NCBI GenBank assembly: GCA_964628055.1 | Contig: CAZVNL010000001.1 | Span: 106,170-170,169 of the forward strand | Source of the DNA: an uncultured bacterium | GTDB lineage: Bacteria > Fidelibacterota > Marinisomatia > Marinisomatales > TCS56 | Reading direction: 5' to 3' | Length of the DNA: 64,000 bases | Part shown: in pieces, positions 388-27,402 of the stretch | How positions within the stretch are numbered: the first letter of the stretch is position 1 | Layout: the number at the start of each line of letters is the position of its first letter | Notes under the pieces: model-generated | Database searches by the model: none | What the model was told of the DNA's origin: nothing | Seen by the model: only the letters and a program-made list of their open reading frames with translations | Translations under genes and position numbers: made by a program

Positions 388-1314
388 TTAGTCCAGATAA
401 CCGCTAAAGAAGAAATCAAGAGGATTCTGGGGGACCCCGAAGGAATGGACTTCATAGTGTAAATGGGGAGCGGTGGAGCGCCCGGTATTCCCCGTCCAAC
501 CGATAATATCTCCCCGTTTGACCTTCTGACCCTTTTTAACGTTAAAAGCCGACATGTGGGCATAGATCGTGGTGTATTGCAACCCGTGACTAATTTTCAC
601 GACGTTTCCGTAGCCTCCGCGATACCGCGCTACGCGAACAATGCCATCAGCAGGAGCCCGGATGGGGGTCCCTTTATGAACGGTGATATCCTGCCCATAA
701 TGAAAACGCACTTTACCGTCCAAGGGGTCTTTACGATAACCAAAACCAGAATTCAAATACCCCCCCTCCACCGGCCGAATGGAAGGAATGGTCCCCACCA
801 TATTGATGTTCGTCCGCACTTTGTCATAAATATCCGTGTAACTGGCTAATTCCAACTTCACTTTTCGGGAGAGCTTATCGATATCCAACTCCAGTTCAGA
901 AATACGGCTTTTTACATCCGGGGTCACTGTACTCAGAGGTGGCGCATTGGCTACACGATACCCCCCAACGCCCAATTTCCGTACATCCTGGTCAATCTCC
1001 GGCAGGTCGGCATAGGTCCGCAACGCTTCGTCTTTTTCTTCCAGGGTTTCCAATTGGGAAGTCAACGATTCCAGTTGATTTTGTAAGTTTACCAGCGTAG
1101 TGGATAGTTCCCGGTAATTAGATTGCATATTTTTTAGTCGGTTCCGGTATAGGATGTCGGTGATATAATCGGCGCTGATAAACAGAAATGCAGAAAGAGC
1201 AATAACCGCTACCACCACAATGGAGAGTAAGGCGCTACGGCTGAACTGCCACTCTCTAATATCGTGTTCGCGCTCTGCTAAAAGAACATATTTATGCTGG
1301 TTTGGTCTTGACAT
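388..1314 (-). CDS. M23 family metallopeptidase (murein endopeptidase) with N-terminal TM helix and coiled coil
   Basis: 308-aa ORF. HxxxD motif (FHYGQD) and HxH motif (APHLHYEVH), with GNTGRST just upstream. The N-terminus has a hydrophobic helix (LLSIVVVAVIALSAFLFI) followed by a heptad-rich segment. Confidence 0.85.
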   Translation of the reverse strand: MSRPNQHKYVLLAEREHDIREWQFSRSALLSIVVVAVIALSAFLFISADYITDILYRNRLKNMQSNYRELSTTLVNLQNQLESLTSQLETLEEKDEALRTYADLPEIDQDVRKLGVGGYRVANAPPLSTVTPDVKSRISELELDIDKLSRKVKLELASYTDIYDKVRTNINMVGTIPSIRPVEGGYLNSGFGYRKDPLDGKVRFHYGQDITVHKGTPIRAPADGIVRVARYRGGYGNVVKISHGLQYTTIYAHMSAFNVKKGQKVKRGDIIGWTGNTGRSTAPHLHYEVHSFGVPQNPLDFFFSGYLD

Positions 1315-1520
1315 TGTGTGTGGTTTTTAGGGATACACCAATCCACGTTTCCGTCTAATTTTACATCATTAAGTCTTAATAATACAAATTCTTTTCAGGG
1401 CCTGATCGAATTTCGCGTGGTTAACGTAATCTCCATTATAATAGTAAGTCAAATACGTCAAATCCGCTAATTCGTTTCCCTTTCTGTTAACCAGAAAAAC
1501 GGTATTTTGAGGATTGGCTT

Positions 1521-1937
1521 CTATTCTATAATCACTCCCCGACCACGAATTTGATAGCGACGAGCATCGCCAGGGGTGTATAGGAACGCGGTGGAATCAA
1601 ACGGCATCCCTTTTTCTTCGAACTCGTGCTGGTGCAATTTAAAAAATTCTGCTTTACTGTATTCTAGCCTTTCTAGCTAGCCTTACACCCGGGCATGCTT
1701 ACCGCGAATGGTAACCGGAAAAACAATCTCTCCATCTTCTACTTTCACGCGAATCTTTTGGCCCGAAGCCTCCCCCCTCAGTTCAATCCAACAGCCTATA
1801 TTAGTACAGACGTCAACGATGGTTCCTTCAATGAGCACCCGGTTGCCAACAAAGTTCTCCGGCGTGGTGACATTGGCTTCAATAGAAACGGTTTTTTCTA
1901 ACGTGAGTGGTGCCCCGAATTGAAGTGGCTCTTGACT
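1521..1937 (-). pseudogene. Decayed DUF4920-like gene (CxxxGCW motif). It has no start codon and two in-frame stops.
   Basis: One minus-strand frame reads ...NRVLIEGTIVDVCTNIGCWIELRGEASGQKIRVKVEDGEIVFPVTIRGKHARV*G*LERLEYSKAEFFKLHQHEFEEKGMPFDSTAFLYTPGDARRYQIRGRGVIIE*. In-frame TAA lies at 1683-1685 and TAG at 1677-1679. There is no ATG/GTG/TTG between the upstream stop (1938-1940) and an internal GTG at 1838. The family assignment is from memory of the VCxxxGCW...FKDxxFxxP pattern. Confidence 0.5.
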
Positions 1938-17038: not shown

Positions 17039-18141
17039 TGCTCTATCACTACCTTTACCCGTTACGAGCCTATTTTTCGCCGTTCAACTTGTTTCAATAT
17101 ATCACCTTTCGCGCGGCCAGCGCCGCCATTTTAGCTTTACTCATCAGCTTCCTCATCGGGCCCTGGATTATCCACAAACTACGAACTCACCAAATCGGTG
17201 AGGAGATACGCCCTACAGGGCCTGAATCCCACCACAAAAAAAAGGGCACGCCAACCATGGGGGGGATCATGATCCTCGGAGCAGTGATCCTCCCTACCCT
17301 CCTTTTGGCAGATCTGGCCAATGTTTATATCCAGATCACCCTGGTCGCTATCCTATGGATGGGGGCCATCGGTTTCCTGGACGATTACCTAAAGGTCATC
17401 AAAAAAAAGCAGAAAGGGCTGATTGCACGCTACAAGTTGGCGGGCCAAATCCTCTTGGGATTGGTCATCAGTTACTGGATCTACCAAATCCCGGAGTTTG
17501 AATCTTTTCGTACTGGCACCAGTGTTCCCTTCTTGAAAAACGTTGAATTGGATTGGGGTTTCTTTTATCCCCTCGTGGTTATTTTGGTAATCACCGGTAC
17601 CTCCAATGGGGTGAACATCGCCGATGGGTTGGACGGTTTGGCGGCCGGTTTGCTGGCGATCTGTTTCACCGTTTTCGCCGCTATCGCCTACATCAGCGGC
17701 CGCGTGGACTTCTCCAGCTATTTGAACATCATTTATCTGCCGGGAGCCGGTGAACTCACTATTTTTACTGCCGCCATTGCTGGGGCTTGCTTAGGGTATT
17801 TGTGGTTCAACGCCGCACCAGCCGAAGTATTCATGGGCGATATTGGCTCTCTCTCTACGGGAGCGGCATTAGGTACCATGGCGCTCCTACTAAAAAAGGA
17901 ACTACTCCTCTTCATCATCGGGGGAGTCTTCGTATGGGAATCCCTCTCGGTGATCCTCCAGATAGGTTATTTCCGGTGGACCCGCAAACGCAACGGGACC
18001 GGGCAGCGATTATTTAAAATGGCGCCCATTCATCACCATTTCGAATTGAAGGGCTGGCCTGAGTCCCGGGTGGTCATTCGTTTCTGGATCATCGGTATTT
18101 TACTGGCGCTCTTTTCCTTAACCACCTTCAAAATTAGATGA
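17038..18141 (+). CDS. mraY: Phospho-N-acetylmuramoyl-pentapeptide transferase MraY
   Basis: 367 aa, polytopic. KKGTPTMGG, GFLDDY, NGVNIADGLDGLA and MAPIHHHFE motifs. Confidence 0.96.
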   Translation: MLYHYLYPLRAYFSPFNLFQYITFRAASAAILALLISFLIGPWIIHKLRTHQIGEEIRPTGPESHHKKKGTPTMGGIMILGAVILPTLLLADLANVYIQITLVAILWMGAIGFLDDYLKVIKKKQKGLIARYKLAGQILLGLVISYWIYQIPEFESFRTGTSVPFLKNVELDWGFFYPLVVILVITGTSNGVNIADGLDGLAAGLLAICFTVFAAIAYISGRVDFSSYLNIIYLPGAGELTIFTAAIAGACLGYLWFNAAPAEVFMGDIGSLSTGAALGTMALLLKKELLLFIIGGVFVWESLSVILQIGYFRWTRKRNGTGQRLFKMAPIHHHFELKGWPESRVVIRFWIIGILLALFSLTTFKIR

Positions 18142-19523: not shown

Positions 19524-20661
19524 CATTACGATCAAGAAGTACGATCGCCTCCTCTTAGGAGCCATTGTCCTGCTGTGCATCGTTGGGACGGTTATGCTCT
19601 TTAGCGCCAGCATTTCCCTTTCCCTCGAAGAGACCCAGGGACAACGGGATATGGTGTACCTCCAGGCCCACCTGAGACGCTTGCTAATCGGGTTTATAGC
19701 CCTGGGCTTTTTTCTCCTGCTGGACTATCGTTATCTAAAACACCTTGCCCTTTACGCCTTGATTGGTACCATCGTTATCCTGATCCTCACCAAAGGAATC
19801 TCGCTCCTCAAGGGACAGAGTTTCCCCGCCCGGTGGCTGTTTGTGGGTCCCTTTTCCATCCAAACCTCTGAGATTGCCCGACTGGCCCTCATCATTTACC
19901 TGGCCAGCTACCTGGACCGGAAACGGGAAGCTATAAAAAACTTTACGGAAGGTTTTTTGCCTCCCGTATTGATCATTGGGTTAGTCGTAGCACTCATCGT
20001 GATCCAACCTGACTTCAGCACGGCTGCTATGATGGCGCTTTTGGGGTTCACCATGCTGTATATTGGGGGAGCTCGGTTCCCCCATCTATTGGCTACCGCC
20101 ACCACCTCCCTGCTGGTAATGGTCCCCGTGATGCTCTTAAAACCCTATCGAATTAAACGCATTCTGTCCTATTTCCGTCCCGATTCGGTGAGCGCCGAAG
20201 ACCTGTACCAGATAAAACAATCTCTCATTAGCATTGGTAATGGTGGCCTGTTTGGCCTGGGGTTGGGGAATAGCCTGGGTAAAGACCTTTTCCTTCCCAC
20301 TCCCCACACAGACTTTATTTTCGCCATCATCGGGGAGGAAACCGGCTTCATCGGGGCCATGTTGGTGATTACCCTCTTCCTCTTCATTTTTCAACGGGGA
20401 ATCAAAATCGCCAAGGATTGCACCGACCCTTTTGGCGTTCTACTGGCCATTGGAATTGTCTTTTCTTTCGTGAGTTACGCTTTCATCAATGCGGCGGTAG
20501 TCACTTCACTGCTACCCACGACGGGCTTGCCCATGCCGTTCATTAGTTACGGGGGTTCAGGCCTGGTAATTAACATGGTAAGCATGGGAATCCTGCTCAA
20601 TATTAGCCAGTCAAAACGGTCCATTGCCCGCCCACCCTGGAGACAACGACAATATGAATGA
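19501..20661 (+). CDS. ftsW: Peptidoglycan glycosyltransferase / lipid II flippase FtsW (SEDS family)
   Basis: 386 aa, about 10 TM helices. QPSEIA-like (QTSEIARLAL), HTDFIFA and PFISYGGS motifs. Confidence 0.93.
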   Translation: MQPLMYLNITIKKYDRLLLGAIVLLCIVGTVMLFSASISLSLEETQGQRDMVYLQAHLRRLLIGFIALGFFLLLDYRYLKHLALYALIGTIVILILTKGISLLKGQSFPARWLFVGPFSIQTSEIARLALIIYLASYLDRKREAIKNFTEGFLPPVLIIGLVVALIVIQPDFSTAAMMALLGFTMLYIGGARFPHLLATATTSLLVMVPVMLLKPYRIKRILSYFRPDSVSAEDLYQIKQSLISIGNGGLFGLGLGNSLGKDLFLPTPHTDFIFAIIGEETGFIGAMLVITLFLFIFQRGIKIAKDCTDPFGVLLAIGIVFSFVSYAFINAAVVTSLLPTTGLPMPFISYGGSGLVINMVSMGILLNISQSKRSIARPPWRQRQYE

Positions 20662-21756
20662 GCAATATCGTATTCTAATCGCGGGTGGTGGAACAGGTGG
20701 ACACCTCTACCCCGCCTTGGCCATCGGAGCAGAACTACAACGACGAGTACCGAACTGTAAAATACACTATGTAGGGACCAGTTTAGGGATCGATGGAACC
20801 ATTTTCGATACACAAGGAGTGGAATACATTCTCCTTCCCATCAAGGGATTCCAACGAGGAGTTTCCTGGAATAGTATCAGAAAAAACGTACTGCTTCCCG
20901 GAAGATTGTTACGCGCCTACCGACAGGCGAAAAAACTTGTGGAGACGTTCCAACCGCAGGTGACGGTGGGAACGGGCGGTTACGCCAGCGCCCTTCCACT
21001 GCACATCGCCACCAAAAAAGGAATCCCGGCCTTGATCCAGGAGCAGAACTCGATTCCCGGTTTAACGACGCGTTGGCTGGCAGGACGGGTAGCGTATGTG
21101 TGCACCAGTTATCCGGAAACAGCCACTTATCTTAAAAAAAAAACTGCCGGCTCATGGGCAACCCGGTGCGACCAGGAATTAATGCAGGGAATCGCATGAG
21201 TGCTGCCCAAGAATTCCAGCTAAACGAGAAGAAAAAAACGCTTTTTATCTTCGGTGGGAGTCAAGGGTCAGCGACCTTAAACCGCTATGCCACACATCTC
21301 GTAGAAACCCTCCCTTCGCAGGACATCCAAATCCTGTGGCAAACGGGAATTCCTCACTATTACCAATACAAACATTTAGAGACGCCCCTGGTTAAAATTT
21401 TACCTTACGTGGAAAACATGCCGGCAGCCTACGCTCTCAGCGACTTAGTGTTATCCCGCGCCGGGGCCCTGACACTCTCGGAGATTACCGTTTGTGGCCG
21501 ACCCAGCGTCCTGATTCCACTCCCCTTTGCAGCAGGAGATCACCAGACTAAAAACGCTCAGTCTCTGGTGACAGCGGGAGCCGCCATGATGATCCCGGAG
21601 AAAGACCTTTCCCCCGCATTGATCACGAGTACCATCGTCGGACTTTTACACGACCAAGAGCGGTTGCAGGAGATGGCCAGGGTCGCCCTTCAACTGGGAA
21701 AACCCCGGGCTACTGAAACCATCGTGGACCTCATTCTGGAATTGGTCGAAAGCTGA
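20654..21756 (+). CDS. murG: UDP-N-acetylglucosamine--N-acetylmuramyl-(pentapeptide) pyrophosphoryl-undecaprenol GlcNAc transferase MurG, frameshifted as assembled
   Basis: The N-terminal half (ORF 20624..21199) carries ILIAGGGTGGHLYPALA. The C-terminal half (ORF 21154..21756) carries GNPVRP, FGGSQGS, RAGALTLSE and GDHQTKNA. The two halves are in different frames and overlap around an A10 run at 21134-21143. One extra A would give ...YLKKKNCRLMGNPVRP... I set the start at ATG 20654, which overlaps the ftsW stop. Confidence 0.9.
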
Positions 21757-23144
21757 TGTTTCGCAAAGTCAACCAGGTTCATTTCGTAGGTATCGGTGGT
21801 ATTGGCATGAGCGGGATCGCCGAACTACTCCTAAACTTGGGGTTCACGATCACCGGGTCTGATCTGCAGAACTCGGAATTAATCGAGAATTTACGACGCA
21901 AAGGCGCCACCATTTACCGAGGTCACCAGGCTTCCCAGATTGCCGGGGCTGATGCTTTGGTGTATTCCAGCGCCGTACGGGAAGACAACCCGGAGCTCAT
22001 TGCGGCCCGGGAACGGGGCCTCCCTGTAATCCGACGAGCGGAAATGTTAGGGGAACTCATCGCTGTTAAAGAAACCAGCATCGGTGTGGGAGGCACTCAC
22101 GGGAAAACTACCACTTCCTCCTTAATCGGGGCGGTACTTTCCAGCGCTGGGCTGGACCCGACGTTAGTCGTGGGGGGACTGGTGAAGAATATCGATACCA
22201 ACTCCCAATTAGGATCCGGGGACATTATCGTCGTGGAAGCAGACGAATTCGATCGCAGTTTCCTGGCTCTCCGGCCTACTATCGCCGTGGTCACGAATAT
22301 CGAATTAGAACACACGGACTGCTACGCCAACTTGGAGGACTTACAAAACGCCTTCACCCAATTCTGCAACTCGGTACCCTTCTACGGCGCGGTTATTACC
22401 TGCCCTGACTCTCCTGGGGTCCAGGAAATTCTGGCCCATATCAAGCGCCCGGTGATCACTTACGGATTTTCCAACCAGGTCGACGTGAGTGCCCGCGATT
22501 TTTCCTATCACGAGAATACATCTCGCTTCACGGCCCTGAATAAAGGGCAGTCCCTGGGTACCGTCAACCTTCAAATCCCCGGTAAGCACAATATTCTCAA
22601 TTCCCTGGCAGCTATTGCCCTGGGACTGGAGATGGGAATTTCCTTCGACAAAATTGCCGCTGGCTTAACGGCATATAGTGGTGTGCGTCGACGCTTCGAG
22701 ATCAAGGGTATTGCCCACGACGTCATGGTGGTGGACGACTATGCTCACCATCCCACGGAGGTAACAGTAACCTTGCGGGCTGCTCGGAGGGGTTGGGACC
22801 GCCGGATCGTGGCCGTATTCCAGCCACACTTGTTCACGCGGACTCGCGACTTCTACCGCGATTTTGCCACAGCTTTCCTGGAATGTGACGTCTTGGTGGT
22901 GACCGATATTTACCCCGCCCGGGAGCGTGAAATTCCCGGAATTACCGGAGAATTGGTGACCCGGGCTGCCAGAACCTCAGGACATAAACAGGTTTATTAC
23001 GTCCCTGAGCTTAAGAACCTCCCCGAGCAGTTAGATGAAATCGTTCGGGGGGGAGATATGATCCTCACTATTGGCGCCGGAAGCATCTGGCGCTATGCCG
23101 AGTCATACTACCAACATTTAAAAGAACGTGAAACATTATCTTGA
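21756..23144 (+). CDS. murC: UDP-N-acetylmuramate--L-alanine ligase MurC
   Basis: 462 aa. HFVGIGGIGMSGIAE, GVGGTHGKTTT and DDYAHHP motifs. Confidence 0.95.
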   Translation: MFRKVNQVHFVGIGGIGMSGIAELLLNLGFTITGSDLQNSELIENLRRKGATIYRGHQASQIAGADALVYSSAVREDNPELIAARERGLPVIRRAEMLGELIAVKETSIGVGGTHGKTTTSSLIGAVLSSAGLDPTLVVGGLVKNIDTNSQLGSGDIIVVEADEFDRSFLALRPTIAVVTNIELEHTDCYANLEDLQNAFTQFCNSVPFYGAVITCPDSPGVQEILAHIKRPVITYGFSNQVDVSARDFSYHENTSRFTALNKGQSLGTVNLQIPGKHNILNSLAAIALGLEMGISFDKIAAGLTAYSGVRRRFEIKGIAHDVMVVDDYAHHPTEVTVTLRAARRGWDRRIVAVFQPHLFTRTRDFYRDFATAFLECDVLVVTDIYPAREREIPGITGELVTRAARTSGHKQVYYVPELKNLPEQLDEIVRGGDMILTIGAGSIWRYAESYYQHLKERETLS

Positions 23145-27366: not shown

Positions 27367-27402
27367 AAAAAAAAGCCCTGACCATCGGTCGGGGCTTTTT
27401 TT
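27367..27402. terminator. Bidirectional intrinsic terminator between ftsZ (+) and rpmB (-)
   Basis: AAAAAAAA-GCCCTGACC-ATCG-GGTCGGGGC-TTTTTTT. The stem is 9 bp (one G-U pair) with a 4-nt loop. An A-run lies 5' and a T-run 3', so it works on both strands. It sits between two convergent genes. Confidence 0.75.

Follow-up and report, generated by a model that had tools for sequence, protein, structure and literature searches.

Here we analyze a 64-kb stretch of DNA (the window) from an uncultured member of the Fidelibacterota (contig CAZVNL010000001.1), in which murG, a gene of the dcw cluster, is read as two open reading frames (ORFs) that change frame at a run of ten A residues. The run (A10, 21134–21143) is flanked by CTT and CTG, and begins at codon position 1 of the frame of the N-terminal half, referred to below as the 0 frame. 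The original prediction had murG split by this run into ORFs 20624..21199 and 21154..21756, and the coordinates and frames are as it described. Contigs and loci other than the window are denoted by L numbers. The features of the window murG are as follows.

20654..21199, plus strand: N-terminal half of murG (0 frame), from ORF reading and Pfam; an alternative upstream ORF start lies at 20624
21134..21143, plus strand: slippery A10 run, read AAA AAA AAA A in the 0 frame; candidate frame-change site
21136..21756, plus strand: C-terminal half of murG, in the −1 frame relative to the N-terminal half; KK-N-C-R-L-M-GNPVR, then the MurG C-domain
21154..21756, plus strand: second ORF as listed; the TGA stop of the C-terminal half (21754–21756) overlaps the murC ATG (21756–21758)
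21157..21171, plus strand: GGC AAC CCG GTG CGA, encoding GNPVR, readable in the −1 frame only; MurG domain junction
21144..21199, plus strand: overlap zone of the 0-frame tail and −1-frame coding sequence, with selection on the −1 frame
21196..21199, plus strand: ATGA, the 0-frame TGA overlapping a −1-frame ATG

The N-terminal half carries the MurG N-domain with the G-loop GGGTGGH (residues 11–17) and QEQNS, followed by the KKK encoded by the A-run and an 18-codon out-of-frame tail, TAGSWATRCDQELMQGIA, which ends at a TGA stop (21197–21199). Of the two ORFs, the first matches the Pfam domain Glyco_transf_28 (PF03033, 3e-29), and the second matches Glyco_tran_28_C (PF04101, 1e-36). Addition of one A gives a continuous MurG of 367 amino acids with the junction ...TSYPETATYLKKKNCRLMGNPVRPGI..., and removal of two A's gives one of 366. 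The repaired protein aligns over residues 6–365 with the solved MurG structures 3S2U, 7D1I and 1F0K, an end-to-end match that bears out the claim that one extra A joins the halves with GNPVR at its normal position. In this alignment the break falls directly before GNPVR, between the two GT-B domains. Thus the locus has the N-terminal GT28 domain with its G-loop, the C-terminal GT28 domain with GNPVR, and the dcw position expected of MurG, the GT28 undecaprenyldiphospho-muramoylpentapeptide beta-N-acetylglucosaminyltransferase.

In the window, murG lies between ftsW and murC, an order also found in relatives. Ten flanking dcw genes were tested (ftsI, murE, murF, mraY, murD, ftsW, murC, murB, ftsQ and ftsA), and all are full length with complete domain sets, as had been stated for the rest of the cluster. 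The A-run is the single lesion in the window murG, with no further disruptions seen in either half. The murG ATG overlaps the ftsW stop (ATGAATGA, 20654–20661), TGATG at 21754–21758 overlaps the murC start, and murG is predicted to be translationally coupled on both sides. Given the coupling to murC, termination in the 0 frame at 21199 would leave ∼560 nt untranslated upstream of murC on an unslipped mRNA.

The same run is present in independent assemblies of the same species. An independent JGI metagenome contig (L001) encodes exactly the truncated product of the N-terminal half, of 181 amino acids. This contig differs from the window by 5 mismatches in 2107 nt, aligns without gaps and has A10. 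At 90%, the product falls into a cluster of four sequences drawn from NCBI, ENA/Logan and JGI. Three further contigs, L214, L215 (NODE_1 of a SPAdes assembly, 15.9x coverage) and L216, match the window at 99.7% identity without gaps, and all have A10. In the resulting same-species set (the window, L001, L214, L215 and L216), drawn from JGI, Logan and ENA assemblies of different runs and pipelines, A10 is found in 5/5, with no tract-length polymorphism at the assembly level. We conclude that the genomic murG frameshift is real and not a sequencing or assembly error. One strain-level single-nucleotide polymorphism lies at 21147, the fourth base past the run, with C in the window, L001 and L216 and T in L214 and L215. 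This C>T change is synonymous in the −1 frame (Cys TGC>TGT) and converts Ala to Val in the 0 frame. Exact-product look-ups of the C-terminal half (200 and 186 amino acids) and of P0121 gave no match, the lack of an exact C-half match being attributable to differences in the starts chosen by gene callers.

A search with the repaired full-length MurG returned nothing above 52% identity, and a scan of genome contigs with the same protein found, among the matches listed, distant genomes only (≤49% identity), via the universal DHQTKNAQ motif. Because a full-length query has no close matches, split relatives remain hidden until the N-terminal half alone is used as the query. This half retrieved dozens of N-domain-only proteins of ∼177–191 amino acids from Fidelibacterota, "Candidatus Marinimicrobia" and FCB-group metagenome-assembled genomes (MAGs), some of them on contigs of 0.5–2.1 Mb; taxonomic labels exist for few of these proteins. 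Among those that reach the junction, 65/93 end with KKK and a short tail, most commonly of 18 residues. When 50%-identity cluster representatives were searched, 4 of the 7 closest matches were N-half-only proteins of ∼180 amino acids.

DNA was obtained for five protein-derived loci and, as no DNA pattern was used to find them, these are unbiased with respect to run length. In these loci, the run occupies the same codon and the C-terminal half lies in the −1 frame, within intact mraY-murD-ftsW-murG-murC-murB clusters. Amino-acid identities, junctions and required shifts are as follows.

L082 (83% identity): CTT-A10-C, −1
L086 (56% identity): CTT-A9-C, −1
L087 (52% identity): CTT-A10-C, −1
L083–85 (49% identity): CTT-A10-C, −1
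L088 (∼40% identity): GGT-A10-G, −1

The murG DNA of the window is 80% identical to that of L082 and barely or not alignable to that of L084 and L087, yet T-A10-C is still kept. A check of run length in relatives had been proposed, and close relatives show neither A11 nor an interruption; the same out-of-frame A10 is retained.

We extended the analysis with a metagenome scan for T-A9...GNPxR, which yielded at least 120 loci, at least 51 of them murG. Among the matches listed, 48 murG loci could be classified, with 21 requiring a −1 shift and 27 in frame. When pooled, the −1 junctions include at least 23 unique ones, with A10 in 18, A9 in 4 and A11 in 1 among the matches listed. Replicate assemblies of relatives agree on the out-of-frame length (L083/84/85, L095/182/213 and L139/204/114). 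In a rough neighbor-joining tree of MurG, −1 junctions occur in several deep clades, with 40–55% amino-acid identity between clades. Collectively, these sequences indicate that the −1 murG frameshift is ancient and has been maintained in numerous deep-branching Fidelibacterota (Marinimicrobia/SAR406) lineages, and that it is a clade-wide feature rather than a peculiarity of one genome. Between two −1 relatives with 85% DNA identity (L097 and L157), a synonymous Leu change, CTT to TTA, lengthens A10 to A11; here the run length changes without an indel, and the required shift is unaltered.

In many intact MurGs of Marinimicrobia, the junction lacks a lysine run. In one clade, the junction is an in-frame ATA-AAA-AAA-AAG (A9; ...IKKKCILAGNPVR), as in ATA AAA AAA AAG TGT, which encodes IKKKC, and other lineages have an in-frame A10 or A12 at exactly the same codon. 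In-frame A9, A10 or A12 junctions are found in L090–L093, L101, L105, L107, L111, L113, L116, L117, L154, L155, L173, L178, L181 and L188. The presence of in-frame tracts in sister lineages suggests that the slippery tract is older and more widespread than the frameshift, and heterogeneous mRNA would be expected from these in-frame genes as well. For the nearest in-frame/out-of-frame pair found, L117 (A10) and L139 (A9), DNA identity is 64%, indicating different taxa rather than alleles. Identical run lengths occur both in frame and out of frame among lineages of comparable assemblies, which excludes a uniform homopolymer miscount. The tract thus appears to be long-standing, with a frame that has changed several times, and such a history is in keeping with a site at which heterogeneity in mRNA length is already tolerated, or exploited, during expression.

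Substitution patterns bear on the choice of frame. When the window is compared with L082, the ratio of nonsynonymous to synonymous substitution rates (dN/dS) is 0.11 for the N-terminal half and 0.085 for the C-terminal half, and values of ∼0.1 in both halves mark strong purifying selection and indicate that both are functional. In the 54-nt overlap after the run, dN/dS is 0.18 in the −1 frame, compared to 1.24 in the 0 frame. Across the 23 unique junctions listed, positional entropy is 0.95, 0.74 and 1.50 at −1-frame codon positions 1, 2 and 3, respectively; GNP is invariant, and variation is confined to −1-frame third positions. In the −1 frame, GNPxR is conserved together with the two hydrophobic codons ahead of it, and the variation that occurs is of the synonymous type. 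On this evidence, the frame under selection after the run is the −1 frame.

Upstream of the run, the −1 frame is shut by a TAA stop (21133–21135) made up of the conserved T (T21133) and the first two A's. In addition, the stretch from the run to GNPxR is free of ATG, GTG and TTG in 17 of the 23 unique junctions listed. Given the stop codon and the scarcity of start codons, a frame change is needed within the A-run itself; that is, for the junction motif to be translated, the −1 frame must be entered inside the run. From the selection on the C-terminal half and on GNPxR, we infer that full-length MurG is produced.

How, then, might the frame be corrected? We think it likely, though well short of certain, that this is a maintained −1 frameshift whose frame is corrected in the A-run during expression, with slippage by RNA polymerase (RNAP) as the most likely route. 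Reliance on slippage was among the options originally raised, and the conserved run and the −1-frame selection lend it support. RNAP would slip on the A-run (reiterative transcription) in a fraction of transcripts. Addition of one A, converting A10 to A11, would give the product ...YLKKKNCRLMGNPVR..., and removal of two, leaving A8, would give ...YLKKNCRLM.... The ribosome may also contribute, by sliding or by −1 slippage of tRNA-Lys on A AAA AAA, and unslipped mRNA would give the N-domain with its 18-residue tail.

Bacterial RNAP slips efficiently on A/T runs of at least 9 nt, a length that matches the 9–10-bp RNA:DNA hybrid, and dnaX of Thermus is the standard example (PMC5009743; PMC1088944). 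In reporters, frameshifting increases with run length, from 10% at 7 A to 40% at 9 A and 63% at 11 A (PMC3711429). All the −1 junctions listed have runs of 9–11 nt, including the five loci obtained without a DNA pattern. At the sequence level, murG has what is expected of a slippage site: an uninterrupted run of ∼9 nt or more where the frame changes, conservation of both run and shift, and a downstream frame under purifying selection. Conserved RNA structure was not found downstream (alifold, −0.24 kcal/mol, with essentially no pairs), where the mean minimum free energy z-score of −0.26 equals that of in-frame controls. Nor was a Shine-Dalgarno (SD)-like element found upstream, tetramers being present in 3 of 22 upstream regions at no fixed position. 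Hence, the site has the heptamer of a classical bacterial −1 programmed ribosomal frameshift and lacks its stimulators.

A second split gene was seen in L088, a Logan contig (SRR12088347). Its murD (508..1886) is broken at an A10 run (999–1008, TCA-A10-TCT) and requires a −1 shift; the N-terminal part terminates as ...ESSKKKSSSSK*, with the conserved ...IFVVEMSSFQLE... following ESSKKK in the −1 frame. These murD and murG sites, in two dcw genes of one genome, have nothing in common except the homopolymer, which points to a general property of the polymerase and away from a gene-specific ribosomal signal. The flanks retrieved for relatives were scanned for further frameshifts at every A/T run of 9 nt or longer, and only murD of L088 was found, so there is no sign of a general abundance of such sites in the scanned flanks. 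Based on the runs of 9–11 nt, the lack of stimulators, the murD split and the precedents, we favor transcription as the probable main corrective route.

The 0-frame stop is itself part of a conserved element. In the main T-A10-C clade, this stop is always TGA, exactly 18 codons past KKK and within (A/G)TGA, in 13/13 unique junctions (window, L082, L085–87, L100, L106, L118, L122, L177, L195, L198 and L213). The overlapping −1-frame codon is ATG or GTG, and the codon that follows is variable (S, N, T, I, R or K) and always A-initial, such that the 0-frame TGA is kept while the amino acid changes. Intact relatives lack a Met at this position. Both observations suggest that the stop/start overlap is itself under selection. 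The (A/G)TGA may be a termination-reinitiation point on unslipped mRNA, holding ribosomes on the message and preserving the coupling to murC; a product re-initiated at ATGA would have the N-terminal peptide MSAAQEFQLNEK.

Several points weigh against transcriptional slippage as the explanation of the locus. The assignment of the corrective step to transcription rather than translation, and its efficiency, are deduced from sequence. The heptamer A AAA AAA is present in 0-frame phase in the window and in all −1 junctions and is a bona fide −1 ribosomal slippery heptamer, and ribosome sliding on poly-A is also known, so that transcription and translation may both contribute. The conserved (A/G)TGA hints that unslipped mRNA is used productively, which a simple slippage model leaves unexplained. 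Because the metagenome scan demanded T plus A9, its run-length statistics are ascertainment-biased, and the roughness of the MurG tree leaves the number of origins and reversions uncertain.

Alternatively, the ribosome may do most of the correction, by programmed −1 frameshifting or by sliding on the A AAA AAA heptamer, with the mRNA being a faithful copy of A10. We regard this as unlikely, although it is the alternative that deserves the most weight. The phase of the heptamer is correct in every −1 junction, and the predicted product is the same as that for insertion of one A. For comparison, the −1 programmed ribosomal frameshift of E. coli dnaX occurs at A AAA AAG, with an SD-like element and a hairpin as stimulators. 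The murG site resembles it in having a lysine-codon slippery heptamer in the same phase and a −1 shift, but differs in that neither an SD-like element nor a stem-loop (nor a pseudoknot) was found and in that the run exceeds the heptamer. A run of 7 suffices for tandem tRNA slippage by the ribosome, whereas the runs at murG are always 9–11 nt, and the murD split of L088 has only a homopolymer in common with the murG site. Moreover, unstimulated heptamers are usually low in efficiency, which fits an essential enzyme poorly. Bacterial frameshifting is documented at both A_AAA_AAA and A_AAA_AAG (PMC3711429).

More tentatively, the A-tract could be an expression device under selection rather than a lesion that the cell tolerates. 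Placed mid-operon in the dcw cluster, it would let slippage tune MurG output (e.g. by the nucleoside triphosphate pools that govern RNAP reiteration), and (A/G)TGA would permit reinitiation. If so, one gene would give rise to full-length MurG plus separate N- and C-domain polypeptides, translation and hence coupling to murC-murB-ftsQAZ would be maintained, and the in-frame and out-of-frame A9–A12 tracts across the phylum would represent different set-points of one mechanism.

Alg14/Alg13 is a eukaryotic split MurG-like GT-B UDP-GlcNAc transferase, encoded by separate genes, each with its own start. MurG might likewise consist of two polypeptides, with the C-terminal half starting at ATG 21154 or, by reinitiation at ATGA, at ATG 21196, and several features suit this scheme. 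The break falls exactly at the GT-B interdomain junction, as it does between the N- and C-domains of Alg14/Alg13, another GT28-type enzyme. In the window ATG 21154 directly precedes GNPVR (L082 has GTG there), every main-clade junction has (A/G)TGA at the 0-frame stop, and gene callers annotate two genes. However, most murG lineages, those behind the 17 junctions above, have no start codon for a C-terminal half that contains GNPxR, and GNPxR and the two preceding hydrophobic codons are nonetheless conserved in the −1 frame. A start at 21196 would leave the invariant GNPVR untranslated, at odds with its conservation (LMGNPVRPGINAGNR is an example of −1-frame peptide upstream of Met-196), and the conserved run of at least 9 A's would have no role. 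Since a frame change is needed within the run, a two-subunit enzyme is unlikely as a general solution, and we consider this explanation improbable.

Phase variation at the DNA level, through slipped-strand mispairing, would imply a mix of A10 (OFF) and A11 or A8 (ON) alleles, with assemblies reporting the OFF form. Homopolymers are hypermutable in replication (PMC1088944; PMC3711429), and related lineages do vary in length and frame (A9, A10, A11 and A12). Yet all same-species assemblies and every multi-assembly set of relatives agree on the out-of-frame length, dozens of species would need to carry an essential housekeeping gene mostly in the OFF form, and in-frame/out-of-frame pairs such as L117 and L139 are distant species. 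These data make phase variation very improbable.

The first option considered in the original prediction, a homopolymer miscall or assembly artefact masking an in-frame sequence, scarcely survives. The A10 is the longest homopolymer of the window, and long homopolymers are the most error-prone. But five assemblies from different pipelines and runs have the same length, the same out-of-frame run recurs in many species, one and the same run length occurs both in and out of frame, depending on the lineage, and so rules out a systematic bias in counting, and the dcw cluster has no other broken genes. The idea that murG is a true pseudogene, for instance because the organism scavenges cell-wall material, as the phylum's one cultured member, Fidelibacter multiformis, is reported to do in drawing its peptidoglycan from exogenous muropeptides (PMC11652737), is effectively refuted by the purifying selection on both halves, taken with the need for a frame change in the run, the lack of further lesions, the otherwise intact pathway and the conservation of the split state across 40–55% amino-acid divergence, in keeping with the earlier judgement that inactivation was unlikely.

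Precedents for slippage by RNAP on A-runs help place murG. Like dnaX of Thermus thermophilus (A9) and the two-ORF dnaX genes with 10 A's, murG is a housekeeping gene with a conserved A-run of 9–10 nt (Antonov et al. 2013, PMC3711429; Atkins et al. 2016, PMC5009743). In the dnaX systems, RNAP generates a heterogeneous mRNA pool at the run, whereas for murG such a pool is predicted from sequence. As in two-ORF dnaX, a slip would be required for the full-length product. Thermus dnaX, by contrast, is an in-frame gene in which the slip yields a second, shorter functional subunit; the genomic frame of murG is broken, no function is known for its short product, and the gene and phylum differ as well.

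A further precedent comes from the endosymbionts Buchnera and Blochmannia, for which the account of Tamas et al. (2008), as relayed in PMC3017870 and PMC5009743, describes essential genes with single-nucleotide frameshifts that lie inside A-runs of 9 nt or more and are rescued by transcriptional slippage. According to the same secondary sources, the affected genes include dnaX, dnaG and pth, are conserved between species without other degradation and, like murG, have undergone independent frameshift or reversion events at the same tract. Conserved poly-A frameshifts in these bacteria give ∼30% full-length transcripts (PMC3017870). However, the endosymbiont genomes are tiny, AT-rich and dominated by drift, with more than 100 long tracts each. 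For murG, the genome is ∼50% GC, the tract is the sole one of at least 9 nt in 64 kb, the hosts are free-living and abundant, and conservation is far deeper, and drift is therefore a less satisfying explanation.

Interrupted ORFs on A/T runs are also known in tssM of Citrobacter rodentium, where RNAP slippage gives truncated and full-length proteins (PMC4256274), and in the Shigella mxiE/spa genes, on poly-A/T, where slippage is again by RNAP (Penno et al., as summarized in PMC3711429). These differ from murG in being accessory secretion-system genes of single species or genera; murG is a core peptidoglycan gene, split across a phylum-level clade.

In the searchable literature, which does not cover subscription-only papers, we found no report of a murG frameshift or murG slippage, or of slippage in Marinimicrobia/SAR406/Fidelibacterota, and the description of Fidelibacter makes no mention of murG or frameshifts. 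The class itself, poly-A transcriptional slippage (dnaX, Buchnera/Blochmannia, tssM, mxiE), is already known, and murG is a candidate member by its sequence-level hallmarks. What is new is the gene, the host group (free-living, abundant Fidelibacterota with ∼50% GC) and the depth of conservation. To our knowledge, conserved recoding of core bacterial genes is rare, being limited to prfB, dnaX and a handful of others. Here, an essential, single-copy peptidoglycan gene keeps a frameshift across deeply diverged lineages of an abundant uncultured marine phylum, and would extend the list to a housekeeping gene of free-living bacteria that form large populations. In such populations, drift of the kind invoked for endosymbionts is a weak explanation, and one may ask whether slippage serves a regulatory purpose. 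The split also has a practical consequence. In these genomes, annotation pipelines report either two "glycosyltransferase" genes or a pseudogene, and such calls can mislead metabolic reconstructions, with peptidoglycan synthesis reported as incomplete, and distort MAG quality scores.

Finally, we considered the composition of the window. Its GC content is ∼0.47–0.54 throughout, without a compositional island at murG, and scans of the whole 64 kb with Rfam (gathering threshold) and for tRNAs returned no family and no tRNA gene. At least one A10 was present in 52/100 dinucleotide shuffles of the window, so a chance A10 in 64 kb is not improbable. The bare presence of the run was accordingly dropped as an argument, and its significance rests on its position and conservation instead. 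The next longest runs in the window are of eight A's, at 17236–17243 and 17401–17408 in mraY, with others at 27367, 39772 and 54033. Both mraY runs are in frame, and MraY is complete at 367 amino acids.

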